From the IMG/VR virus record IMGVR_UViG_2693429748_000014: a stretch of DNA of 12,787 nucleotides. The stretch is one strand, 5' to 3'. Position numbers and translations under genes: made by a program. The DNA is from a virus. Taxonomy: Duplodnaviria; Heunggongvirae; Uroviricota; Caudoviricetes. How positions within the stretch are numbered: position 1 is the stretch's first letter; each line of letters opens with the position of its first letter. Below, piece after piece: positions 1-12,787 of the stretch. Below the pieces are notes generated by a model. It saw only the letters and a list, made by a program, of their open reading frames with translations. It did no database searches and was not told the origin of the DNA.

Positions 1-72
1 TAAGTGATACTGGTTGTCTGGAGATTCAGGGGGCCAGTCTACCACCCCTGATGTCAGGTAGGAAAACACCAT
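1..72 (-). CDS. 5'-partial ORF of unknown function downstream of D; begins MVFSYLTSGVVDWPPESPDNQYHL and runs off the window start
   Basis: ATG at 72-70 on the minus strand, preceded by an AAGGA-containing stretch; open to the window edge. No recognisable similarity to Ogr, which would follow D in P2. Confidence 0.2.
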   Translation of the reverse strand, partial: MVFSYLTSGVVDWPPESPDNQYHL

Positions 73-190
73 ATGTTTCTGCTCTGTTTTTCCTTAGAAA
101 TAGGCATCCTTGCTGGAACAAAGCGAGCAGCTATATTGACTCTATGTTGTGAGTGTGTTGATCCGTTCTGAGTTAATACATTTAAGTTGC

Positions 191-1300
191 TCACTCTGTT
201 TCTGCTATCCATTCCGGGATTTTTGCCTCAAGCTCAAGCTGCGTGGTAAAGCCGCTGTTATCAATGGTGTGCTCGGCTTTTGCAATAATCCAGTCCTGAT
301 TATCAATCTCGCTTTTAAATCCTGTTACCGTGCCATGCATTTCGGGGTAGAGTTCTGCACGTCCATGCGCCAGTGTGATGGAGAATGATGCGGCTCCGCG
401 TTGTAGCTGCTGCCACTTTGCCGCCGCTGCACGTCTTGCTGCCTGCTCGTTCTGATAAGTTTTGCGTAACACAAACACGTTGCCTTCCGCACCTTCCATA
501 TAGTCGCCTTCCCGGCTGCTGCTTTTCTCCTTTTTTGGTTTTGACGGTTTGCGGCGTTTCACGCTGACTTTTTTCTTTTTCCCGTAATTAAGATCAAGCC
601 AGTAAGCGCGTACCCCCGTATACGCTTCGCGGTCAGCAATGCGGAACTGATGGCGATCGCCGCTGCTGCGTGTGATGGCGAACGAGGGCAACGGCTGGCC
701 CTGTGCGTTCACGCCACCACCGGGCATGATGAATAACAGATTACCGCTTTTTACCGTGGTGATTGCGCCCAGCATTTCCGCCATGCGCGTAAGGAAGGAC
801 ATGTCGCTTTCTTCGGTCTGGTCGGCGTGGTCGATTTCGATATCCATCAGCATTTCGCTGATTTGCGGTTTCAGACCATACCGATGAGCGATGGCGGATA
901 CCACACGCTCAACGGTCACATCATGCCAGGACACCTCACGTTTAACGTTAAATTCAGCCCGAAAATCTGCGCTTCTGGCTGAAACAGTCAGCCTGTCCGG
1001 CGGTCCTTCGTGAGCGATTTCATCAACAATGTAAGTGCCTTTTTCTGTCAGCGGTTCTCCCTTCCAGCCAATGAGAACCGTCAGGCGCGCGCCCCGTGGC
1101 GGTAGCTGCAACTGACCATCCGCATCATCCAGCGTGATGGTGAGCTGGTCCGCCTCAAATCCCCGGTTGTCGGTCAGTGACAGGCTCATCAGGCGCTCTG
1201 CCACGCCTGACAGCGTTTTACCCTCCGCGAGAATATCAAAATCCGGCATTTTCACGGGGTCTGTGCCCTGACTGAGCAATTGCATGGTGGTGTCGGTCAT
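191..1300 (-). CDS. P2 gpD-like tail protein (late control gene D family)
   Basis: Translation recalls P2 gpD motifs (LSLTDNRGFEADQL, SARSADFR, SWHD, FLTR, GDRHQF, REGDYMEG, NSGFTT, lysine-rich KKKKVSVKRRKPSKPKKEK linker). Start placed at the internal ATG at 1300 (MTDTTMQLL) because of the GGGAGGGAG Shine-Dalgarno just upstream; the ORF-track start at 1432 is probably too long. Confidence 0.85.
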   Translation of the reverse strand: MTDTTMQLLSQGTDPVKMPDFDILAEGKTLSGVAERLMSLSLTDNRGFEADQLTITLDDADGQLQLPPRGARLTVLIGWKGEPLTEKGTYIVDEIAHEGPPDRLTVSARSADFRAEFNVKREVSWHDVTVERVVSAIAHRYGLKPQISEMLMDIEIDHADQTEESDMSFLTRMAEMLGAITTVKSGNLLFIMPGGGVNAQGQPLPSFAITRSSGDRHQFRIADREAYTGVRAYWLDLNYGKKKKVSVKRRKPSKPKKEKSSSREGDYMEGAEGNVFVLRKTYQNEQAARRAAAAKWQQLQRGAASFSITLAHGRAELYPEMHGTVTGFKSEIDNQDWIIAKAEHTIDNSGFTTQLELEAKIPEWIAETE

Positions 1301-1457
1301 CTGCTCCCTCCCTGTGTGGCATGGTCGCATGTGCGTGCGGAGGGGGTTACTGCTTTTTGTTGTCGCCGTGGCGGGAGAATGGCGCAGGGGTGAGATTACG
1401 CGCGTGGTGGGTGATGATTGTTGCCGAATCATTTAACGGATACAAGGGGTTGAAGCT

Positions 1458-2642
1458 ATGAGTGAAACTCGTTTTCATGGTGCCCGTGTTACGGAAAATA
1501 CCGACCTGGTAACAGCGATTAACGATGTTGATTCCAGCGTTATCGGTATCGTGGCAACGGCGGATGATGCGGACGCGGAGCTGTTCCCGCTGAACAAGCC
1601 CACACTGCTGCCCCGCGTCAATGACGTGCTGGGAAAATGCGGAACAACGGGGACGCTTTATCGTGCGCTTAAGGCCATCGCAGACCAGGTGAGCACAAAG
1701 GTGATCGTCGTTCGCGTGGCTGAACACAAAGAAGAAGACGGAAAAACGCAGGATCAACTGGTTATCGGTGGTTCTGAATCTGACGGCAGCTATACGGGGA
1801 TGTATGCGCTGCTTGTTGCAGAGCAGGATGAAAGCATCGGATACCGTCCGCGTATTCTGGCCGCGCCGGAGCTGGACACGGAGGCGGTGACAAAATCCCT
1901 GTGCGTGATTGCGGGTAAACTGCGCGCGTTTGTGTATGCCTCATGTCATGACTGTAACACGATGGCTGAGGCAATTACCTACCGCCAGAAATTCAACGAA
2001 CGTGAGGTGATGCTCTTATGGCCGGACTTCATCGCCTACAACCCGAAAAGTGGCAAAAACGAAACGTTCCCCGCGCCTGCCTATGCGTGCGGCCTTCGTG
2101 CGTACATTGACCATGAGCAGGGCTGGCACAAATCGCTGTCCAACGTTCCGGTTAAAAATGTGCTGGGGATGTCCAGGCATGTGTTCTGGTCGTTGCAGGC
2201 CGAAGACAGTGATGCCAACAGCCTCAACAACAAAGAAATCACGACCATTATTCGTCGCAACGGGTTCCGCTTCTGGGGCAACCGCACACCGGAAACGAAC
2301 GCCTACATCTTTGAGGTGTATACCCGAACCGCACAGGTGCTGGCTGATTCAATTGCGGAAGCGCAGTTTGAAACCATCGACAGTCCACTGACGCCTGCGA
2401 ACGTGAAGGATGTTATCGGTGCCATCAGGGCAAAACTGGATTCACTGGTTACTGCCGGGAAACTGATTGGGGCGTCGTGCTGGTATGACGTGGTGGATAA
2501 CGGCACCACGAATTTACGTCAGGGGCGCGTGCGTATTCGCTACAAATATACGCCTGTTCCCCCGCTGGAAGACATGGAGCTTTACCAGTCGTTTACTGAT
2601 GAATTCTTTGGTCCCGCATTTGCGGTGCTGGGAGGTGCCTGA
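1458..2642 (+). CDS. contractile tail sheath protein (P2 gpFI family)
   Basis: 394 aa; motifs LRAFVYAS, WPDF, DHEQGWHKSLSNV, RRNGFRFWGNRT, YTRTAQV and YKYTPVPPLE match tail sheath proteins as I recall them; AAGGGG RBS; stop overlaps next start (ATGA). Confidence 0.9.
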   Translation: MSETRFHGARVTENTDLVTAINDVDSSVIGIVATADDADAELFPLNKPTLLPRVNDVLGKCGTTGTLYRALKAIADQVSTKVIVVRVAEHKEEDGKTQDQLVIGGSESDGSYTGMYALLVAEQDESIGYRPRILAAPELDTEAVTKSLCVIAGKLRAFVYASCHDCNTMAEAITYRQKFNEREVMLLWPDFIAYNPKSGKNETFPAPAYACGLRAYIDHEQGWHKSLSNVPVKNVLGMSRHVFWSLQAEDSDANSLNNKEITTIIRRNGFRFWGNRTPETNAYIFEVYTRTAQVLADSIAEAQFETIDSPLTPANVKDVIGAIRAKLDSLVTAGKLIGASCWYDVVDNGTTNLRQGRVRIRYKYTPVPPLEDMELYQSFTDEFFGPAFAVLGGA

Positions 2643-3154
2643 TGGCTGTACCAAAACATCTTCGCTTTTTTACGCTGTTTGTGGATGGTGAAAACGAAGT
2701 GGGTAAGGTGACGTCCGTCACTCTGCCTAAGCTGACGCGCAAAACCGACAGCTACCGGGGTGGTGGCATGATGGGAGCGGTAAGTATTGATCTCGGCCTG
2801 GATGACTCCGCGCTTGATGCGAGCTTTGTCATGGGGGGCGCAGTTCGTGAGCTGTTCCTTAAGTATGGCGGCACGATTGACGGTACGCTGCTGCGTTTTG
2901 CGGGTGAATACTACACCGACGCTGAAAGCGACCTGTATGAAGTCGAAATGCGCGGACGTGTGACGGAAATTGATATGGGGGAAGCCAAACAGGGCGAAGC
3001 CACATCACACACTTACGCCATTAAAAACACCTACTACAAGCTGAGTGTTAACGATCGCCCGTTGTGGGAGATTGACCTGCTGAACTTCATTTACCGGAAG
3101 GACGGCAGGGACATTGTGCCCGATCGCATCCGTTCCGCGCTCGGGCTTGGCTGA
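2642..3154 (+). CDS. tail tube protein (P2 gpFII family)
   Basis: 170 aa immediately after the sheath gene; translationally coupled (ATGA overlap) with GGGAGG RBS; size and position typical of the FI-FII pair. Confidence 0.85.
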   Translation: MAVPKHLRFFTLFVDGENEVGKVTSVTLPKLTRKTDSYRGGGMMGAVSIDLGLDDSALDASFVMGGAVRELFLKYGGTIDGTLLRFAGEYYTDAESDLYEVEMRGRVTEIDMGEAKQGEATSHTYAIKNTYYKLSVNDRPLWEIDLLNFIYRKDGRDIVPDRIRSALGLG

Positions 3155-3208
3155 TAAGTAATATGCAGGCGGCGCAGTGCGTCGCCTCTGACTGAAAGGA
3201 GTTTCCTG

Positions 3209-3574
3209 ATGAAAGAGACGAAAAACATCGATACCGAAAACACGGTCGTTGCTGACACTGTGAAAGAAACCAGTGAGCGTGGCGTAAAACTTACCCAACC
3301 AATTGAGCGAGGCGGCGAAAAAATCACGTATGTGGAGATCACCGGGGCTATTGAGCAGGCTGGATCTCTGCGAGATTTGTCGCTGTCTGATGTGCTGAAT
3401 TTGAAAGCGGAATCCATGTTTACGCTGCTGTCACGCGTGACATCACCGCGACTGGATGAAGTGACGATCAAAAAAATGGCATCCCGTGACTTTATTCAGT
3501 TATGTGTGGTTGCCGTAAATTTTTTGAGCGGTGCGGACTCTGGCGAGAAGAACGAACAGGCGACGGAAGCCTGA
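3209..3574 (+). CDS. tail assembly chaperone (P2 gpE-like), zero-frame product
   Basis: 121-aa ORF between tube and tape measure genes; AGGAG RBS 8 nt upstream; contains the TTTTTTG slippery heptamer at 3520-3526. Confidence 0.75.
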   Translation: MKETKNIDTENTVVADTVKETSERGVKLTQPIERGGEKITYVEITGAIEQAGSLRDLSLSDVLNLKAESMFTLLSRVTSPRLDEVTIKKMASRDFIQLCVVAVNFLSGADSGEKNEQATEA

Positions 3575-3738
3575 TCACGGTTGTGTGCTTTGAGCACATA
3601 GAAGACTTTGTGGCGGATATTGCCGCCATTTTTAACTGGTCGCCCGCCGAAATCTTCATGATGACGCCCGGCGAAGTGGTTAGCTGGCGTGAGCGGGCGG
3701 CACTTCGCAGCGGGAATGCAGACAATGAAGACTCTTGA
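3209..3738 (+). CDS. gpE+E'-like frameshift fusion product (-1 slip at T TTT TTG, 3520-3526)
   Basis: Slippery heptamer lies in-frame as N-F-L. The -1 frame is open from there to the TGA at 3736-3738 (ORF-track protein 3502..3738) and overlaps the tape measure start, as in the P2 E/E' and lambda G/GT arrangement. Confidence 0.6.
3520..3526 (+). promoter_or_regulatory. programmed -1 ribosomal frameshift slippery site TTTTTTG
   Basis: Heptamer seen directly in the sequence with the correct zero-frame phasing (aaT TTT TTG); same heptamer is used in P2 E/E' by recollection. Confidence 0.6.
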
Positions 3739-6532
3739 TATCCGGGTCGCTTTCAGCGCCGTTGACAGGCTGACCCGGCCTGCCGAAAACGCCCGCCGCC
3801 TGATGGGGCAGTTTGGTGACTCCATCCAGCGAACGCAGGGGGCGATCAAAAATCTCGAGCGTCAGGCGCGTTCATTTGAGCGCGCCCGTGACGCTGTCAG
3901 TAAAGCGGATGCGGGCATCGTGAAAGCACGACGCCAGCTTAACGCCCTTAATCAGTTACAACGCACGGGTACAGTGCTCAGCGAAAAACAACAAAAGCTG
4001 ATGCAGCAGTTAAGCACCCGGCTTGAACGCCTGAATGAATCGCGCACACGGGAAATTCAGAAAATGCGGGAACTTGGCGGAGAGCTGAAACGCCACGGCA
4101 TTTCCCTGACAGGCAGCGATAACACCATCCAGCAGGCCATCAGACGCACCGGACAATACAACAACCAGCTTGAACGCGAACGGCGGGCGCTTGCGCGTGT
4201 AACGCAGGCGCGTGAGCGGTATTCACGCGCGCAGGAAACAGCGGGAAAACTGAAAACAGGTGGTGCGCTGGCAACAGGTGCGGCGGCAGCGGGCGGCTAT
4301 GCTGCCGGGCGTTTTTTGCAGCCCGCTATCGGGTTCGGGAAAGAGATGTCCCGTGTTCAGGCACTGACGCGAATCGATAAAAACAGCCCGCAGTTTAAGG
4401 CGCTGCGTGAGCAGGCGTTAAAACTTGGCTCTGAAACGCAGTTCACCGCAGGCGATGCCGCCAGTGGACAGGCATTTCTTGCAATGGCTGGTTTCACACC
4501 GCAGGCCATTCAGGCTGCGCTTCCCGGCGTGCTGAGCATGGCAACGGCTGGCGGTATGGACCTCGGCGAGACGGCGGATATTGGTTCCAATATCCTGACG
4601 CAGTTCGGCCTCTCTGCTGACCAGATGGACCGGGTCGGTGACACACTTACCGCAGCGTTTACCCGTACCAACACTGACCTTCGCGCACTGGGCGAAACCA
4701 TGAAATATGCAGGTCCGGTGGCGGGTAAGCTGGGAATATCGCTGGAGCAGGCCGCAGCGATGGCGGGCGTGCTGGCGAAGATGGGTATCAGGGGGAGTGA
4801 TGCAGGTACAGCGTTGCGTAAAAGCCTGGCCAATCTGTCATCACCGCCAAAGGCAGCGGCAGAAGCACTGAAAGAGCTGGGGGTGTCAGTTGCTGACGCC
4901 AAAGGCAAAATGCGCCCGATGGAGAATGTGCTGGCCGATCTCTATAAAGCCACCCGCAAATACGGGGAGGTTGACCGGGTATCGTTCTTTAAGGACATTG
5001 CCGGAGAAGAGGCTTTCACATCATTTATGGGCCTCGTTGATGCGGCAGGTGACGGCTTCTTAGCCAAACTGAGAAAAGAACTTGAAGGCGCGCGCGGTGA
5101 GGCAGAACGCACGGCAAAGGTTATGGCCAATAACCTTGATGGCAACCTGAAATCACTCGGCAGTGCATGGGAAGGTCTGCGTATTCGCATCAGTGATCTG
5201 GTTGACGGTCCGCTGCGTTCTGTCACGCAGTGGCTCACGCGGGTTGTCTCAAAGGTGACGGCGCTGGCGCAGGCCCACCCGGCACTGACGCGCCAGTTAC
5301 TGATAGCGGGAGGCGCACTGCTGGCGACAACAGCAACGGTTGGTTCGTTGTCTCTGGTTATTGGGGTGCTTCACGGGAAGCTGGCTACGTTGCGTCTCGG
5401 TTTTTCTCTCCTGACCGAATCAATGAATGTTGTCAGGGTTCTGCCTGCATTATGGGGAATGGTGACGGGTTCCGTTTCTTTACTTGGTGGCGCTATCGGG
5501 GCGCTGTTCAGTCCGGTTAGTCTTATCGTGGCTGCGCTTGCCGGAGCTGCCGTTCTTATCTGGAAATACTGGGATCCCATCAGGGCATTTTTTGCCGGGG
5601 TGTTCAGCGGGATTATGGAAAGGCTGACCCCGTTGCGCGAAACCTTTGAACGGTTTGGCCCTGTTTTTGATGTCGTGCGCGATGGGATTATTCAGGTCTT
5701 TAACTGGTTTAAATCGCTGCTGTCACCGATGGAGTCCAGCAAGGAAACGCTGGATAAATGTGCCAGTGCTGGCGAGATATTCGGTAACGTTCTTGGCGGT
5801 GCGTTACAACTTGTTCTGACACCTGCAAAAATGCTACTGGATACGCTGGCGTGGATACTTGAAAAACTTGGCGTCCTTCCGGATGAAGCGGAAAGGGCGC
5901 GCAAGAAAATCGAAGACGCACAGCGTGCGGCCATTCTTCAGGACAAGGTTGCCTTGCTTCAGGGGGACCTGGCGAAAATCAATCCGCCGAAGCCTGTGGA
6001 AAATGGCAATGGCACCGGAGGTGATAAACCCAAAGACAACAAACCGCTCACAGACAGCAATACCGGGACGCTACGCAGACTCAGCAAAATTGCTGATAAC
6101 ACAGGTAAGCTGGTTGATGAGACGAAAAAACGCATTGGCCCCGGCGATATTGTCTTTAAGAACCTGCCCCGCGCACTTGCTGTTCGTGGGGAGTGGCAGG
6201 AGCGGAAGATTGCGCAGGTCAGTAAGCCTGCCCCCGCAATTAATATCACACCCGTGGTCCCGGCTCCGCTGCCTCCGGCGCTGGTCCCTGTTGTTGCGGC
6301 CAGCTCCCGCCCGGTGGCGGAGGCCATACGCTCTCCAGTGGCATCAGTTCCTGTAACTTCCCGTAACCGGGAGCCTGTTGCCTCCGGATTTGGTGGTGAA
6401 ATTCATGTTCATCTGCATAACGTTGTTACGCAGAATCCCCGCGAACTGGCGAAACTGGTCGGTGAAATGGTCAGGGCAGAAATGGAACGGCGCGCCCGTG
6501 CCGGGCGTGGCAGTTTTTACGATAAAGATTGA
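3725..6532 (+). CDS. tail tape measure protein (P2 gpT-like)
   Basis: Very long ORF (GTG 3689 to TGA 6532) after the chaperone pair; coiled-coil-like N-terminal region, central hydrophobic Gly/Ala/Leu-rich block, Pro/Ala-rich C-terminus. Start uncertain: ATG 3725 (GGGA about 9 nt upstream) preferred, with ATG 3716 and GTG 3689 as alternatives. Confidence 0.8.
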   Translation: MKTLDIRVAFSAVDRLTRPAENARRLMGQFGDSIQRTQGAIKNLERQARSFERARDAVSKADAGIVKARRQLNALNQLQRTGTVLSEKQQKLMQQLSTRLERLNESRTREIQKMRELGGELKRHGISLTGSDNTIQQAIRRTGQYNNQLERERRALARVTQARERYSRAQETAGKLKTGGALATGAAAAGGYAAGRFLQPAIGFGKEMSRVQALTRIDKNSPQFKALREQALKLGSETQFTAGDAASGQAFLAMAGFTPQAIQAALPGVLSMATAGGMDLGETADIGSNILTQFGLSADQMDRVGDTLTAAFTRTNTDLRALGETMKYAGPVAGKLGISLEQAAAMAGVLAKMGIRGSDAGTALRKSLANLSSPPKAAAEALKELGVSVADAKGKMRPMENVLADLYKATRKYGEVDRVSFFKDIAGEEAFTSFMGLVDAAGDGFLAKLRKELEGARGEAERTAKVMANNLDGNLKSLGSAWEGLRIRISDLVDGPLRSVTQWLTRVVSKVTALAQAHPALTRQLLIAGGALLATTATVGSLSLVIGVLHGKLATLRLGFSLLTESMNVVRVLPALWGMVTGSVSLLGGAIGALFSPVSLIVAALAGAAVLIWKYWDPIRAFFAGVFSGIMERLTPLRETFERFGPVFDVVRDGIIQVFNWFKSLLSPMESSKETLDKCASAGEIFGNVLGGALQLVLTPAKMLLDTLAWILEKLGVLPDEAERARKKIEDAQRAAILQDKVALLQGDLAKINPPKPVENGNGTGGDKPKDNKPLTDSNTGTLRRLSKIADNTGKLVDETKKRIGPGDIVFKNLPRALAVRGEWQERKIAQVSKPAPAINITPVVPAPLPPALVPVVAASSRPVAEAIRSPVASVPVTSRNREPVASGFGGEIHVHLHNVVTQNPRELAKLVGEMVRAEMERRARAGRGSFYDKD

Positions 6533-6538
6533 GGAGTC

Positions 6539-7033
6539 ATGGCCATGATGATGATCTACGGCATGTTTGTTTTTGAGCTGCGTACATTGCCGCATCAGCA
6601 GTTACAGCAAAACAAAAGCTGGCGGCATGTGAAAAATGAACGCGTTAACCGTTCGGCAAGCTGGCAGTATATCGGTGCAGGTGATGAGCGCATCGTTCTT
6701 TCTGGTGTGCTTTATCCTGAAATTACAGGTGGCGAAGTGTCGCTGTCGCTGCTGACCACGCAGGCGTATACAGGACGACCCTGGCCTCTGATTGATGGCG
6801 TCGGGCAGATTTACGGCATGTATGTCCTGACCGAAACGAATACGACCCGCTCCGAGTTTGATCGCTACGGTAAGGCGAAAAAGATAGAATTTTCACTGAC
6901 TCTTGAACGCTGTGATGAGGATTTGCGGGAGCGCCTGCAATCCTCATCGTTCAGCGATATGCTGTCCGGCTTCAAAGATAAGGTAACATCATCCCTTAAC
7001 AGCGCGGCCAGTTCAGTTAAAGGGTTGTTCTGA
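6539..7033 (+). CDS. tail protein gpU-like (tail sheath-terminating / tail completion protein)
   Basis: 164-aa ORF directly after the tape measure gene with GGAG RBS; size and position match P2 gpU. Confidence 0.8.
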   Translation: MAMMMIYGMFVFELRTLPHQQLQQNKSWRHVKNERVNRSASWQYIGAGDERIVLSGVLYPEITGGEVSLSLLTTQAYTGRPWPLIDGVGQIYGMYVLTETNTTRSEFDRYGKAKKIEFSLTLERCDEDLRERLQSSSFSDMLSGFKDKVTSSLNSAASSVKGLF

Positions 7034-7044
7034 TTTAACACAAA

Positions 7045-7079
7045 AACCGCTAATGGTCAGATTAGCGGTTATTTTGTTT
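7045..7079. terminator. bidirectional intrinsic terminator between convergent U and invertase genes
   Basis: Perfect 10-bp inverted repeat AACCGCTAAT / ATTAGCGGTT with 6-nt loop, A-run upstream and ATTTTGTTT downstream. Confidence 0.6.
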
Positions 7080-7656
7080 CCTGACTCTTCTCTATTGTTC
7101 CGATTGATTCTCCTGCGGGGTGGTAACGATAAATCGTCGATATACCAATGCCGTAAATTATTGCCAGTTGTTTTCTGTCGTGCCCGTTTTTGATCAGCCT
7201 TGCTATTTGCTCATGCTGTTCTTTTGTCAGCTTCGGTCGACGTCCGCCTGTGCGCCCCCGTGCGCGTGCTGCCGCCAGTCCGGCCAGTGTACGTTCAACA
7301 ATTAATTCACGTTCCATTTCAGCCAGGGCACCCATCACGTGGAAGAAAAAACGCCCCATTGGAGAAGATGTATCTATGCTGTCGGTCAGACTGCGAAAAT
7401 TAATTCCTCGCTCCCGTAGTTCCCCGACGAGAGAAATCAGATGTTTCATGCTTCGCCCGAGGCGATCCAGTTTCCAGACAACCAGCGTGTCACCTTTTTG
7501 AAGGCGCTTTAAAGCGCGTTTTAATCCCGGTCGGTCTGTCTTTGTCCCGCTTAATTTATCTTCAAATATTTGTTCACATCCTGCACAAACAAGAGCGTTT
7601 CGTTGCAGGTCTGTATTCTGGTCATTTGTTGATACCCTTACATAGCCAATCAGCAC
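7069..7656 (-). CDS. serine site-specific DNA invertase (Gin/Pin/Cin/Hin family)
   Basis: N-terminus VLIGYVRVSTNDQNTDLQRNAL with catalytic-serine motif, WKLDRLGRS, GRFFFHVMGALAEMERELIVERT and a C-terminal helix-turn-helix, all hallmark invertase sequences. Start set at GTG 7656 (GGGAGA RBS) rather than the TTG at 7674 used by the ORF track. Confidence 0.9.
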   Translation of the reverse strand: MLIGYVRVSTNDQNTDLQRNALVCAGCEQIFEDKLSGTKTDRPGLKRALKRLQKGDTLVVWKLDRLGRSMKHLISLVGELRERGINFRSLTDSIDTSSPMGRFFFHVMGALAEMERELIVERTLAGLAAARARGRTGGRRPKLTKEQHEQIARLIKNGHDRKQLAIIYGIGISTIYRYHPAGESIGTIEKSQETK

Positions 7657-7710
7657 GCTGAATCTCCCGTCCAAAAGCGCAAATCATGCCATGCAGGCCG
7701 GAAACGGCCA

Positions 7711-7736
7711 TTATCTAAAACCTCGGTTTACAGGAA
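7711..7736. promoter_or_regulatory. 26-bp invertase crossover site (gix/cix/hix-like): TTATCTAAAACCTCGGTTTACAGGAA
   Basis: Imperfect palindrome with AAACC-N2-GGTTT core; matches the Mu gix sequence as I recall it at 25 of 26 positions. Lies between the invertase start and the fibre cassette. Confidence 0.7.
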
Positions 7737-7760
7737 ACGGTAAACAAGGCTGGTAACGCC

Positions 7761-8747
7761 GTGCAAAAAAATGGCGATACGTTGTCCGGTGGACTTACTT
7801 TTGAAAACGACTCAATCCTTGCCTGGATTCGAAATACTGACTGGGCAAAGATTGGGTTTAAAAATAATTCGGATGCAGACACCGATTCCTACATGTGGTT
7901 TGAAACAGGCAACAACGGCAATGAATATTTCAAATGGAGACACCGCATCATTGGCACCCGGCCTAAAGACCTGATGAATCTTAAATGGAATGCTTTGTCT
8001 GTTCTTGTTGAAGCCCTTTTCAGCAGTGAAGTGAAAATATCGACAGTCAATGCACTGAGGATATTTAATTCATCTTTTGGTGCCATTTTTCGTCGTTCTG
8101 AAGAATGCCTGCATATCATCCCTACACGAGAGAATGAAGGGGAAAATGGTAATATAGGGCCACTACGCCCCTTTACGCTTAATCTCAGAACTGGCCGGAT
8201 AAGCATGGGGCATGGTCTTGATGTTACAGGGGATATATTTGCAAACCGTTTTGCAATTAACAGTAGTACCGGCATGTGGATTCATATGCGTGACCAGAAT
8301 GTTATTTTGGGACGTAATGCGGTATCCACTGATGGTGCTCAGGCTTTGCTCCGTCAGGACCATGCCGACCGCAAATTTATGATTGGCGGTCTGGGAAATA
8401 AGCAATTTGGCATCTACATGATTAATAACTCAAGGACAGCCAATGGCACCGATGGTCAGGCGTACATGGATAATAACGGGAACTGGCTTTGCGGCTCGCA
8501 AGTTATTCCCGGCAACTATGGCAATTTTGATTCCAGATATGTGAAAGATGTTCGACTTGGTTCACAGCAATATTATGGAGTGAACAACTGGCAAACATGG
8601 AATTTTCAGTGCCCGTCAGGCTATGTACTGACGGGGATTAACGTACAGGATACCGGAAAAAACTCTGCCGATAATATTGCAGGCGTTCATTACAGGCCAG
8701 TGCAAAAGTATATAAATGGCACTTGGTATAATGTGGCGAGTATTTAA
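7761..8747 (+). CDS. tail fibre C-terminal variable cassette (Sv-like); reading frame is actually open from 7719
   Basis: Contains the [10 protein letters not shown] fibre motif and ends [11 protein letters not shown]. The GTG start at 7761 is probably not a real initiation site: the frame is open back into the right half of the crossover site, as expected for a cassette fused to a constant N-terminal part by inversion. Confidence 0.75.
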
Positions 8748-8748
8748 T

Positions 8749-9276
8749 ATGATGCACTTAAAGAACATAAAAGCAGGTAATGCTAAAACAGTGGAGCAGT
8801 ATGAGTTAACAAAGAAGCACGGAGTCATCTGGCTTTACTCTGAGGACGGAAAAAACTGGTATGAGGAAGTGAAGAACTTTCAGCCAGACACAATAAAGAT
8901 TGTTTACGATGCAAATAATATTATTGTCGCCATCACCAAAGATGCCTCCACGCTTAACCCTGAAGGTTATAGCGTCGTTGAGGTTCCTGATATTACAGCT
9001 AATCGTCGTGCTGATGATTCCGGTAAGTGGATGTTTAAGGACGGAGCTGTGGTTAAACGGATTTATACGGCTGACGAACAGCAACAACAGGCCGAATCAC
9101 AAAAGGCCGCATTGCTTTCCGAAGCTGAATCAGTCATCCAGCCGCTGGAACGCGCTGTCAGGCTGAATATGGCGACGGACGAGGAACGCACACGACTGGA
9201 AGCATGGGAACGCTACAGTGTTCTGGTCAGCCGTGTGGATACGGCAAAGCCAGAATGGCCACAAAAGCCTGAGTAA
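8749..9276 (+). CDS. tail fibre assembly chaperone (Tfa / Mu U / P2 G family)
   Basis: Starts [10 protein letters not shown] one nucleotide after the cassette stop; paralogous to the convergent ORF 9305..9838; conserved [19 protein letters not shown] and KWMFKDG motifs. The longer ORF-track start at 8716 overlaps the fibre gene and is less likely. Confidence 0.8.
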
Positions 9277-9281
9277 AAATT

Positions 9282-9301
9282 AAGGCCCGATATCGGGCCT
9301 T
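9282..9301. terminator. palindromic hairpin / bidirectional terminator between convergent tfa genes
   Basis: AAGGCCCGATATCGGGCCTT is a perfect 20-bp palindrome with A/T-rich flanks on both sides. Confidence 0.5.
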
Positions 9302-9304
9302 GTT

Positions 9305-9838
9305 TCATTCTGGTTGTTCGGGAAACGTTACTGGCAGGCTGGAGGTGTCTGTGGATTCGACCTTCTGCGCATAGAGCATCCACTCGGTTAATTTTTGTTT
9401 ATTCTCGTCGGAAATAATGCCCAGCCGTAGCTGTGAGTCCCATAGCTGGGTTTTATCCCTGACGAGCTGTAGCAGGCTTTGCTTTTCATTTTCCGCTTGT
9501 TGCCTCTGCTCTTCCCCGGTATAAGTTCGCTTTATCACTACGCCATCTTTGAACATCCATTTACCTGAAATATCAGCCCGGCGATTTGCTGTAATATCAG
9601 GAACCTCAACGACGCTTGCGCCTTCCGGATTAATTGCTGAAACATCCTTTTCAATACAAATAATAACGCCGTTGTGGTCATAGACCATTTTCAACGTATC
9701 AGGCTGAAAGTTCTTTTGTTCCTCATACCAGTTTTTCCCATCCTCTGTATAAAGCCATTTGATGTTAAATTGTTTCGTTAGCTGGTATTGCTCTTTTGTT
9801 TCAGGATTACCAGCAGAAATGTTTTTTAAGTGCATCAT
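9305..9838 (-). CDS. tail fibre assembly chaperone, second paralogue (Tfa')
   Basis: Starts MMHLKNISAG; N-terminal two-thirds closely similar to the plus-strand chaperone while the C-terminus diverges, as expected for cognate chaperones of alternative fibres. Confidence 0.8.
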   Translation of the reverse strand: MMHLKNISAGNPETKEQYQLTKQFNIKWLYTEDGKNWYEEQKNFQPDTLKMVYDHNGVIICIEKDVSAINPEGASVVEVPDITANRRADISGKWMFKDGVVIKRTYTGEEQRQQAENEKQSLLQLVRDKTQLWDSQLRLGIISDENKQKLTEWMLYAQKVESTDTSSLPVTFPEQPE

Positions 9839-9840
9839 CG

Positions 9841-10197
9841 TTAAATACTCCCCGCGTTATACCACGTCCCATTAATGCAATACTGAATTGGCCTTGCCTG
9901 AGTTGTATCAATTAGTTCATCTCTGTTTGAGTTAACGGAACCGGTAACAACATAACCTGACCTGTCAGACCATCCGGGACCATTCCATGTCTGAACAGAT
10001 AACAGACCACCAAGGCGAATACCTGTAATAAACCTTGAGTTACATTCTGCCTGCGTATATGCACCAACATCTCCCGCAGAGGGTTTGCGGGTTGTGGTGT
10101 AAAACTCTGAGGTGTACTGGCAATAGCGGACACTACCATTTGTTCTTTTTTTAAGCAGCCATCTGATGATATTTTTCCCTGAAGGCTGAAGGCTATT
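9841..10197 (-). pseudogene. truncated alternative tail-fibre C-terminal cassette (Sv' remnant), about 118 codons with no start codon
   Basis: Hand translation of the minus strand gives ...RLGGLLSVQTWNGPGWSDRSGYVVTGSVNSNRDELIDTTQARPIQYCINGTWYNAGSI*, homologous to the C-terminus of the plus cassette (SGYVLTG ... [11 protein letters not shown]). Stop TAA at 9843-9841, 2 nt before the Tfa' start. Frame closed upstream by TGA at 10200-10198, where GC content drops. Confidence 0.55.
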
Positions 10198-10250
10198 TCA
10201 ATATCGCTATGCTGCGGCAGCATTTAACCCCTTGTAATTCATCGCCATAA

Positions 10251-10279
10251 TTGATTTAATTCACAAATAAAACTATAAT
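10251..10279 (+). promoter_or_regulatory. predicted sigma70 promoter TTGATT-N17-TATAAT for the methyltransferase gene
   Basis: Hexamers at 10251-10256 and 10274-10279 with 17-bp spacer in an AT-rich region just upstream of the ORF. The predicted transcription start would leave a very short leader. Confidence 0.35.
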
Positions 10280-10291
10280 ATGGTGAAATTA

Positions 10292-10948
10292 ATGAAAAAA
10301 AACACAGATGATGGGGCTAAAATTTACACACCACTTACCCTAAAGCTTTATGACTGGTGGGTTTTGGGAGTATCAAATCGGCTTGCATGGGGATGTCCTA
10401 CAAAGGAACACCTTCTTCCACACTTTCTGGAACATTTAGGTAACAACCATCTGGATATTGGTGTTGGAACTGGGTTTTACCTTACTCACGTACCTGAGAG
10501 TAGTCTGATATCTTTAATGGATTTGAACGAAGCTAGCCTGAACGCGGCATCTACAAGGGCTGGGGAATCAAAAATTAAACATAAAATTAGCCATGATGTT
10601 TTTGAACCTTATCCCGCGGCGTTACATGGTCAATTTGATTCCATTTCCATGTTTTACCTTCTTCACTGCCTGCCTGGAAATATATCTACAAAAAGCTGTG
10701 TAATACGCAATGCGGCGCAGGCCTTAACTGATGATGGAACTCTATACGGAGCCACAATTCTTGGCGATGGAGTTGTGCACAATAGCTTCGGTCAAAAACT
10801 GATGCGCATTTACAATCAGAAAGGCATCTTTTCAAACACAAAAGATTCCGAAGAAGGCTTAACACATATACTCTCAGAGCATTTCGAGAATGTTAAAACC
10901 AGGGTTCAAGGTACTGTAGTAATGTTTTCCGCTTCAGGGAAAAAATAG
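10292..10948 (+). CDS. class I SAM-dependent methyltransferase (cargo / moron gene)
   Basis: Motif I-like LDIGVGTGFY, acidic residue after the second strand (LMDLNEASL) and later FDSISMFYLLHCLPG / LTDDGTLYGATILGDG motifs, consistent with the Rossmann methyltransferase fold. Clearly lower GC than the flanks. Start at ATG 10292 (GGTGA RBS) preferred; ATG 10280 possible. Confidence 0.65.
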   Translation: MKKNTDDGAKIYTPLTLKLYDWWVLGVSNRLAWGCPTKEHLLPHFLEHLGNNHLDIGVGTGFYLTHVPESSLISLMDLNEASLNAASTRAGESKIKHKISHDVFEPYPAALHGQFDSISMFYLLHCLPGNISTKSCVIRNAAQALTDDGTLYGATILGDGVVHNSFGQKLMRIYNQKGIFSNTKDSEEGLTHILSEHFENVKTRVQGTVVMFSASGKK

Positions 10949-10988: not shown

Positions 10989-11146
10989 CATAATCCCAAT
11001 GATTACTCCCTGACAGGGTTCGTAGGCCACTCAATATCAGGTGCAGTTGATGTATCAACACGGTTCAGCAACACCCGATACTTTTTCTAGGCTTCCACCA
11101 CCAGCACGACAAGATGCCGCATACAGTGACCCAGTCAGTCCAGTTT

Positions 11147-11329
11147 TCAGACAACCAGTGCGTCACCTTTTTGAAGGCGCTTTAAAGCACGTTTTAATCC
11201 AGGTCGGCCTGTCCTTGTTCCGCTTAATTTATCTTCAAATATTTGTTCATATCCTGCACAAACAAGAGCGTTTCGTTGCAGGTCTGTATTCTGGTCATTT
11301 GTTGATACCCTTACATAGCCAATCAGCAC
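11147..11329 (-). pseudogene. 5' fragment of a second Gin/Pin-family invertase gene (about 60 N-terminal codons), truncated
   Basis: Encodes VLIGYVRVSTNDQNTDLQRNALVCAGYEQIFEDKLSGTRTGRPGLKRALKRLQKGDALVV then a stop; 4 amino-acid differences from the intact copy. Homology to the intact gene ends near 11139. Confidence 0.7.
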
Positions 11330-11383
11330 GCTGAATCTCCCGTCCAAAAGCGCAAATCATGCCATGCAGGCCGGAAACGGCCA

Positions 11384-11409
11384 TTATCTAAAACCTCGGT
11401 TTACAGGAA
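11384..11409. promoter_or_regulatory. second copy of the 26-bp gix-like crossover site, in direct orientation to the first
   Basis: Identical sequence TTATCTAAAACCTCGGTTTACAGGAA, 3673 bp downstream of the first copy. Confidence 0.65.
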
Positions 11410-11433
11410 ACGGTAAACAAGGCTGGTAACGCC

Positions 11434-12420
11434 GTGCAAAAAAATGGCGATACGTTGTCCGGTGGACTTACTTTTGAAAACGACTCAATCCTTGCCTGGA
11501 TTCGAAATACTGACTGGGCAAAGATTGGGTTTAAAAATAATTCGGATGCAGACACCGATTCCTACATGTGGTTTGAAACAGGCAACAACGGCAATGAATA
11601 TTTCAAATGGAGACACCGCATCATTGGCACCCGGCCTAAAGACCTGATGAATCTTAAATGGAATGCTTTGTCTGTTCTTGTTGAAGCCCTTTTCAGCAGT
11701 GAAGTGAAAATATCGACAGTCAATGCACTGAGGATATTTAATTCATCTTTTGGTGCCATTTTTCGTCGTTCTGAAGAATGCCTGCATATCATCCCTACAC
11801 GAGAGAATGAAGGGGAAAATGGTAATATAGGGCCACTACGCCCCTTTACGCTTAATCTCAGAACTGGCCGGATAAGCATGGGGCATGGTCTTGATGTTAC
11901 AGGGGATATATTTGCAAACCGTTTTGCAATTAACAGTAGTACCGGCATGTGGATTCATATGCGTGACCAGAATGTTATTTTGGGACGTAATGCGGTATCC
12001 ACTGATGGTGCTCAGGCTTTGCTCCGTCAGGACCATGCCGACCGCAAATTTATGATTGGCGGTCTGGGAAATAAGCAATTTGGCATCTACATGATTAATA
12101 ACTCAAGGACAGCCAATGGCACCGATGGTCAGGCGTACATGGATAATAACGGGAACTGGCTTTGCGGCTCGCAAGTTATTCCCGGCAACTATGGCAATTT
12201 TGATTCCAGATATGTGAAAGATGTTCGACTTGGTTCACAGCAATATTATGGAGTGAACAACTGGCAAACATGGAATTTTCAGTGCCCGTCAGGCTATGTA
12301 CTGACGGGGATTAACGTACAGGATACCGGAAAAAACTCTGCCGATAATATTGCAGGCGTTCATTACAGGCCAGTGCAAAAGTATATAAATGGCACTTGGT
12401 ATAATGTGGCGAGTATTTAA
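11434..12420 (+). CDS. tail fibre C-terminal variable cassette, second copy (identical to 7761..8747)
   Basis: ORF-track translation is identical to the first copy. Confidence 0.7.
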
Positions 12421-12421
12421 T

Positions 12422-12787
12422 ATGATGCACTTAAAGAACATAAAAGCAGGTAATGCTAAAACAGTGGAGCAGTATGAGTTAACAAAGAAGCACGGAGTCA
12501 TCTGGCTTTACTCTGAGGACGGAAAAAACTGGTATGAGGAAGTGAAGAACTTTCAGCCAGACACAATAAAGATTGTTTACGATGCAAATAATATTATTGT
12601 CGCCATCACCAAAGATGCCTCCACGCTTAACCCTGAAGGTTATAGCGTCGTTGAGGTTCCTGATATTACAGCTAATCGTCGTGCTGATGATTCCGGTAAG
12701 TGGATGTTTAAGGACGGAGCTGTGGTTAAACGGATTTATACGGCTGACGAACAGCAACAACAGGCCGAATCACAAAAGGCCGCATTG
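12422..12787 (+). CDS. tail fibre assembly chaperone, second copy, 3'-truncated by the window end
   Basis: Same [10 protein letters not shown] start and sequence as 8749..9276 at offset +3673; runs off the window. Confidence 0.7.

Follow-up and report, generated by a model that had tools for sequence, protein, structure and literature searches.

The window (the whole 12,787-nt stretch of DNA that was analysed) carries a block of P2-type tail genes, a serine invertase gene with a crossover site just upstream of it, a silent tail fibre cassette and two tfa genes, followed by a foreign module and a second copy of part of the same sequence (Table 1). The order D(-), FI-FII-E-T-U(+), invertase(-), site, silent cassette and two tfa genes is shared with Xuanwuvirus and matches that of Escherichia phage 520873, E. 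coli 755 and 20 E. coli genomes. The FI-U block converges on the invertase and the invertible fibre segment, the arrangement that marks Xuanwuvirus (P88-like Peduoviridae), while head, baseplate and fibre constant genes are absent within the 12,787 nt. The switch described here very probably belongs to a P88-like (Xuanwuvirus, P2-type) prophage remnant in a Shigella- or EIEC-like genome.

Table 1. Features of the window, with coordinates counted from its first nucleotide.
Feature	Position	Strand	Basis or remark
P2-type tail genes D(-), then FI, FII, E/E', T, U(+)	191-7033	mixed	Pfam matches to GPD, GpU
Hairpin, intrinsic-terminator-like on both strands	7045-7070		between convergent gpU and invertase genes
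Gin-family serine DNA invertase, intact, 195 aa, GTG start	7069-7656	-	Resolvase + HTH_7; same 195-aa gene annotated in relatives
Putative equivalent of the Fis-dependent recombinational enhancer	7567-7638	-	predicted position, inside invertase 5' end
gix-type site, copy 1	7711-7736	+	outer half 7711-7722, TC 7723-7724, cassette-owned inner half 7725-7736
Silent tail fibre C-terminal cassette A, 342 codons + stop	7719-8747	+	frame, L020 homology
Tail fibre assembly (chaperone) tfa gene of cassette A	8749-9276	+	Caudo_TAP
Tail fibre assembly tfa gene of opposing cassette B	9305-9838	-	Caudo_TAP
Cassette B 3' fragment	9841-10110	-	L020 homology ends at 10110
IS600 terminal remnant	10108-10189		95.8% identity to IS600 ends; same IS end in L014
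tfa remnant start + class I SAM methyltransferase gene (10280-10948)	10190-10948	+	module of lambdoid prophage ends / Shigella ipaH islands
Invertase pseudogene, 5' fragment	11093-11329	-	stops after codon 60
gix-type site, copy 2	11384-11409	+	identical to copy 1, direct orientation, same TAA
Cassette A, second copy	11392-12420	+	100% identical to first

The FI-FII-E-T-U block (191-7674) lies on the strand opposite gpD and, in relatives, opposite the fibre and baseplate genes. This inverted block, converging on the invertase across the hairpin, is common to P88-like Xuanwuvirus prophages; P2 itself is not known to have such an inversion. Further relatives (L015, L018, L019 and L021-L023, at about 11190-14300) have the same tail backbone with a different, Pin-like invertase of 199 aa and four to seven short cassettes with the 'Collar' domain, whose order and orientation vary between genomes, which suggests a multiple-inversion (Min/shufflon-like) fibre system. 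The invertase-proximal site of L015 has an in-frame TAA at its outer edge.

The window invertase matches the Pfam domains PF00239 (1.3e-50) and PF02796 (1.6e-13), is 86% identical to Mu Gin and keeps Ser9 (VRVS9TNDQ); the first 100 nt of its gene are identical to Mu gin. An enhancer is annotated in the P1 record at nt 19-90 of cin, and its putative equivalent was placed in the window invertase gene.

The crossover site, TTATCTAAAACCTCGGTTTACAGGAA, is a 26-base gix-type sequence that reads ATC TAA AAC CTC GGT TTA CAG GAA in the cassette frame, with the T at 7716, the TAA at 7716-7718 and the central TC at 7723-7724; 342 codons are open from 7719 to the stop at 8745-8747. Its AAACC-NN-GGTTT core within a 26-bp imperfect palindrome is a feature of Gin/Cin/Pin/Hin (Din) sites. 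The 26-mer has two exact copies in the window (7711 and 11384), both on the + strand, where 0.00 were expected (200 shuffles), and 25 of its 26 bases are identical in Mu gixL and gixR. The preliminary description had noted the in-frame TAA ahead of the silent cassette, which we confirm, and had given C as the Mu base at this position, making codon CAA, which is correct: both Mu gix sites read TTATCCAAAACCTCGGTTTACAGGAA. The alignment that it proposed, with authentic gix, cix and pix sites and with the Mu and P1 junctions, showed that the window differs from Mu only at the T. These comparisons support the reading of the sequence as a crossover site of Gin type, adjacent to a Gin-like invertase.

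The system is already known, being the classical, well-described Gin/gix host-range switch, and as a re-identification of it the finding matters little. The G segment of Mu (Gin, gixL/gixR) has the same central TC/GA, the same LGLQE junction motif, paired cassettes and chaperone genes, and a site upstream of the invertase gene. Its Sc/Sv junction reads …PLFIQNLGLQETVN… and its gin-proximal site IMPCVPKSTIIQNLGLQETVN…; with C in both sites, Mu has 104 open codons upstream of gixR in this frame, whereas the T in the window makes a TAA. The window differs further in its P2-type prophage host element and in missing a partner site and a constant part. Shigella phage SfMu, about 95-96% identical in DNA over the region, has an invertase-proximal site identical to that of the window, including the T and the TAA, in a complete segment with the inverted partner TTATCCAAAACGTCGG…. 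Between the two SfMu sites (L004, 4756-4781) there are two differences, T/C at position 6 and C/G adjoining the central dinucleotide; of these the SfMu paper treats just the 1-bp one by the central bases, and it does not mention the TAA (PMC4406740).

The C segment of P1 (Cin, cixL/cixR) belongs to the same switch family and shares the LGL junction, with ILAK…VIQY as constant-part context. Its Sc-proximal cix reads …AVIQYLGLRELG… and its cin-proximal cix …ISILNLGLRELG…, where the codon is CTA and open; cin reads towards the segment and ends within cixL, on a TAA of its own in a different frame. The P segment of e14 (Pin, E. coli K-12) lies in a defective prophage and likewise pairs an invertase with an adjacent silent fibre cassette; its sites have diverged (TTTTCATAAACG TT GGTTTGGGAGAA), the pin-proximal codon is ATA and the frame is open upstream.

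In switches of this family the textbook rule, which the present finding confirms, is that exchange at the central dinucleotide fuses the constant fibre part to alternative tips. Of the fibre segment the window has the cassettes and tfa genes and lacks the constant part, but the L020 locus, 99.99% identical to it over 43-10110, has an inverted partner, TTATCGAATACC-TC-GGTTTACAGGAA (TTATCGAATACCTCGGTTTACAGGAA), inside a 656-aa fibre gene. The context of this partner is …AAVIEYLGLQETVNQ…, and its half-site is open, reading ATC GAA TAC, or I-E-Y. The central dinucleotide is TC in both L020 sites, each read cassette-ward, as it is in both window copies. Inversion of L020 in silico between the central dinucleotides turned the 656-aa fibre into a continuous fibre of 678 aa, whose last 341 residues are identical to the window cassette, and parked the other cassette behind the same TAA; in this type of switch each alternative C-terminal cassette has its own chaperone gene. 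L074 is a natural ON form, in which a 95% identical cassette follows 345 open codons, and inverted site pairs are present in L020, L001, L004, L005 and L103. A survey of cassettes and half-sites, covering 79 IMG/VR loci plus other loci, found each of the cassette types ETVNQ…, ETVNK…, ETVNRAR… and RELGTSG… in two settings, following the TAA half-site and joined to a constant part.

The preliminary description had proposed that the left half-site, with its stop, is swapped for that of the partner at the central dinucleotide and that the cassette frame then runs on from a constant part. The swap is borne out in L020, with the natural recombinants in agreement, and the partner-site check gave the predicted continuous frame in the 678-aa recombinant. 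The mechanism is thus right for this type of element. The further claim, that the silent cassette becomes a C-terminal fusion, holds for L020 (in silico) and for the L074 type and fails for the window, which is without partner and constant part.

On this evidence the site at 7711-7736 is very probably the invertase-proximal site (the gixR equivalent) of a Gin-family fibre switch, with a T that is common and likely functionless, the switch being broken in the window. By analogy with Gin/Hin biochemistry, a Gin dimer in an intact element would bind this site and the inverted partner in the fibre gene, and both would be cut at the central TC before strand rotation. The cassette with its inner half-site would thereby be joined to the outer half-site of the partner, …V-I-E-Y / L-G-L-Q-E…, giving an in-frame C-terminal fusion and leaving the other cassette parked beside the invertase. 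The outer half-site beside the invertase is coding in neither orientation, and hence free to drift.

On the T at 7716 the preliminary description goes too far: T is the usual invertase-proximal base in the lineage and no peculiarity of the window. The TAA at this site is also found in SfMu, E. coli 755, ETEC H10407 and phage 520873 (as ATT TAA), so the T is normal there; its carriers are SfMu, P88-like (Xuanwuvirus) P2-type prophages and lambdoid prophage ends. Among P88-like prophages, phage 520873, E. coli 755 and L020 all have the TAA in the invertase-proximal site. A sample of 98 such sites, which the search pattern biases and in which near-identical prophages abound, has TAA as the invertase-proximal codon in 92, CAA in four and AAA in two; the constant-part-proximal codon in the sampled loci is GAA in 40 and CAA in 12, and never TAA. 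When only the 19 unique upstream flanks are counted, site position 6 is T in 14, C in three and A in two, one flank occurring with both T and C, and its variability resembles that of the other variable columns.

The stop had also been taken as a cap that keeps the cassette silent. It is not needed for this, as Mu (CAA), P1 (CTA) and e14 (ATA) are open at the same codon, and the position varies among close relatives; since those three are open, invertase-proximal sites do not in general carry an in-frame stop. Within the 10-bp core half-site the T at 7716 occupies position 8; the native gix core, CTGTAAACCGAGGTTTTGGA (PMC5175349), agrees with the Mu sites. The Gin catalytic domain takes any base at core positions 10-7, as measured with an activated domain fused to zinc fingers and not with native Gin carrying its HTH (PMC3616721). 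The TAA is therefore probably, as we infer, a neutral variant at a position tolerated by Gin. The 92 of 98 majority and the persistence of the stop beside a changed codon (ATT TAA in phage 520873) would be compatible with some selection on TAA and do not require it.

Such selection could in principle maintain the TAA as a translational cap, against ribosomes starting at the ATG at 7687 (MPCRPETAII*) or translating antisense-invertase transcripts; the product blocked would be a free fibre-tip fragment that could poison fibre trimers or soak up chaperone. The prevalence of the stop (92/98 sampled sites, T in 14/19 unique flanks) fits this, as do its retention in phage 520873 despite the neighbouring change, the conservation of the in-frame ATG nine codons upstream, and the case of an unrelated multi-cassette relative of Pin type, whose invertase-proximal site has an in-frame TAA at its outer edge. 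In Mu, moreover, this frame has 104 open codons, which GeneMark calls as a gene. Mu is a fully functional phage, however, and the codon is open in D108-type phages, P1 and e14 as well, while C and A alleles occur on otherwise near-identical flanks. The frame in the window is already closed by a TGA 18 codons upstream. Non-coding DNA is expected to show a stop roughly once in 20 codons. The ATG at 7687 has no evident Shine-Dalgarno sequence in front of it, no promoter-like site faces the cassette, and an ORF of 328 aa, starting at the in-frame GTG at 7761, is left behind the TAA. We consider a selected cap unlikely, and likewise its active maintenance across the SfMu, P88-like and lambdoid lineage, which would block synthesis of free fibre tips from the parked cassette. 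If it were real, Mu-type (CAA) phages would have to tolerate or use a low level of free fibre-tip product.

The T might instead act on the other strand (GGTTTTAGATAATGG), where the invertase promoter would have a -10-like element (GATAAT or TAGATA) that includes or adjoins this base, and so tune expression or autoregulation of the invertase. The site does lie 55 bp upstream of the invertase GTG, and GATAAT is visible on the invertase coding strand, but GATAAT is the same in T and C alleles and a consensus scan of the minus strand from 6900 to 8000 found no promoter-like site, so that we regard a promoter role as very improbable. Inactivation of the site by the T was also considered, and was rejected: the TAA half-site is joined to at least four cassette types that are also found fused to constant parts. 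We retain the neutral reading; a large set of prophages of Escherichia and Shigella has T/TAA as its standard spelling next to the invertase, and this spelling is compatible with recombination.

The switch in the window is incomplete. No inverted partner site was found in the whole window at up to 7/26 mismatches, and the sole other site, at 11384-11409, repeats copy 1 in direct orientation, TAA included, and adjoins a truncated invertase. With neither a partner nor a constant part, copy 1 is not switchable within the window. P88-like prophages continue into a full opposing cassette, a partner site (IEY), the constant part and baseplate genes, whereas in the window this continuation ends at 10110, where homology to L020 stops and cassette B is cut by an IS600 remnant. 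The 82-bp remnant (10108-10189) occupies the very point at which cassette B breaks off and the methyltransferase module starts, a position that implies at least two IS-associated rearrangement steps. In ETEC H10407 the same module stands at the end of a lambdoid prophage, with a truncated invertase and a frozen fibre segment as neighbours, and in Shigella-type contigs it lies beside ipaH. Very probably an IS600-associated rearrangement took away what remained of cassette B together with partner site and constant part. Next in the sequence comes the lambdoid-type module with methyltransferase and truncated invertase, whose own site and cassette were probably replaced by a copy of this one.

The copy forms a direct repeat, 7570-9114 and 11243-12787, that extends for 1.5 kb at 100% identity with a spacing of 3673 bp and reaches the window end, copy 2 being identical to copy 1 throughout from 11251; it takes in the 5' end of the invertase gene, the site, all of cassette A and a portion of the accompanying tfa gene. 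Left of the repeat (7420-7570) identity falls to 76-98%. Copy 2 is of the module type up to 11250 and of the copy-1 type at 11352, 11373 and 11379, which puts the switch of sequence type 32-134 bp left of the site. A Gin crossover between two prophages was considered for its origin and rejected, since the exchange between 11250 and 11352 lies left of the site centre (11396-11397) and 11352, 11373 and 11379 are already copy-1-type.

The direct-repeat layout might also be an assembly artefact, a repeat-induced mis-join of two prophages sharing the invertase 5' end, site and cassette. The copies are 100% identical over 1.5 kb to the window end and the switch point falls in shared sequence, as a mis-join would have it, and the layout is not found in public contigs (the junction 42-mer has 0 exact matches in GTDB species representatives, the 103-aa junction ORF has no entry in the gene-position index, and the relatives retrieved with gpU, the cassette and the methyltransferase are intact or differently arranged). 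The junctions between cassette B and IS600 and between IS600 and the methyltransferase module (10108-10190) are, however, unique sequence, which a repeat mis-join cannot produce, and IS-driven rearrangements of these modules are common in related Shigella-type contigs. We judge an artefact improbable. To go by its sequence, the join in copy 2 was most probably a homologous exchange or gene conversion, with mis-assembly less likely. A partner for either copy may lie right of 12787, about 3 kb away, and the intact invertase could flip this right-hand segment in trans if an intact cassette B, a partner and a constant part follow. Within the window the copy is a switch that has decayed and has no partner, set in a prophage mosaic scarred by IS elements.

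In several complete genomes (L014, 11173-12450; L016, L106-L108) a full IS600 lies inside the invertase-proximal gix site, in the arrangement ttatctaaaac / IS / aaacctcgg; with the outer part and its TAA split off from the core in this way, the switch should be locked. The methyltransferase gene at 10280-10948 recurs as prophage-end cargo, its neighbours being ipaH (LRR + NEL) effector genes in genomes of Shigella type and, in E. coli, truncated invertases.

The parked cassette is called as a free-standing 328-aa protein from an internal GTG in both copies (7761-8747 and 11434-12420), and in relatives the corresponding ORF has a Gp34_trimer match. It is a promoter-less C-terminal module and no complete gene, although gene callers can be expected to go on labelling it as a 328-aa "tail fibre protein".
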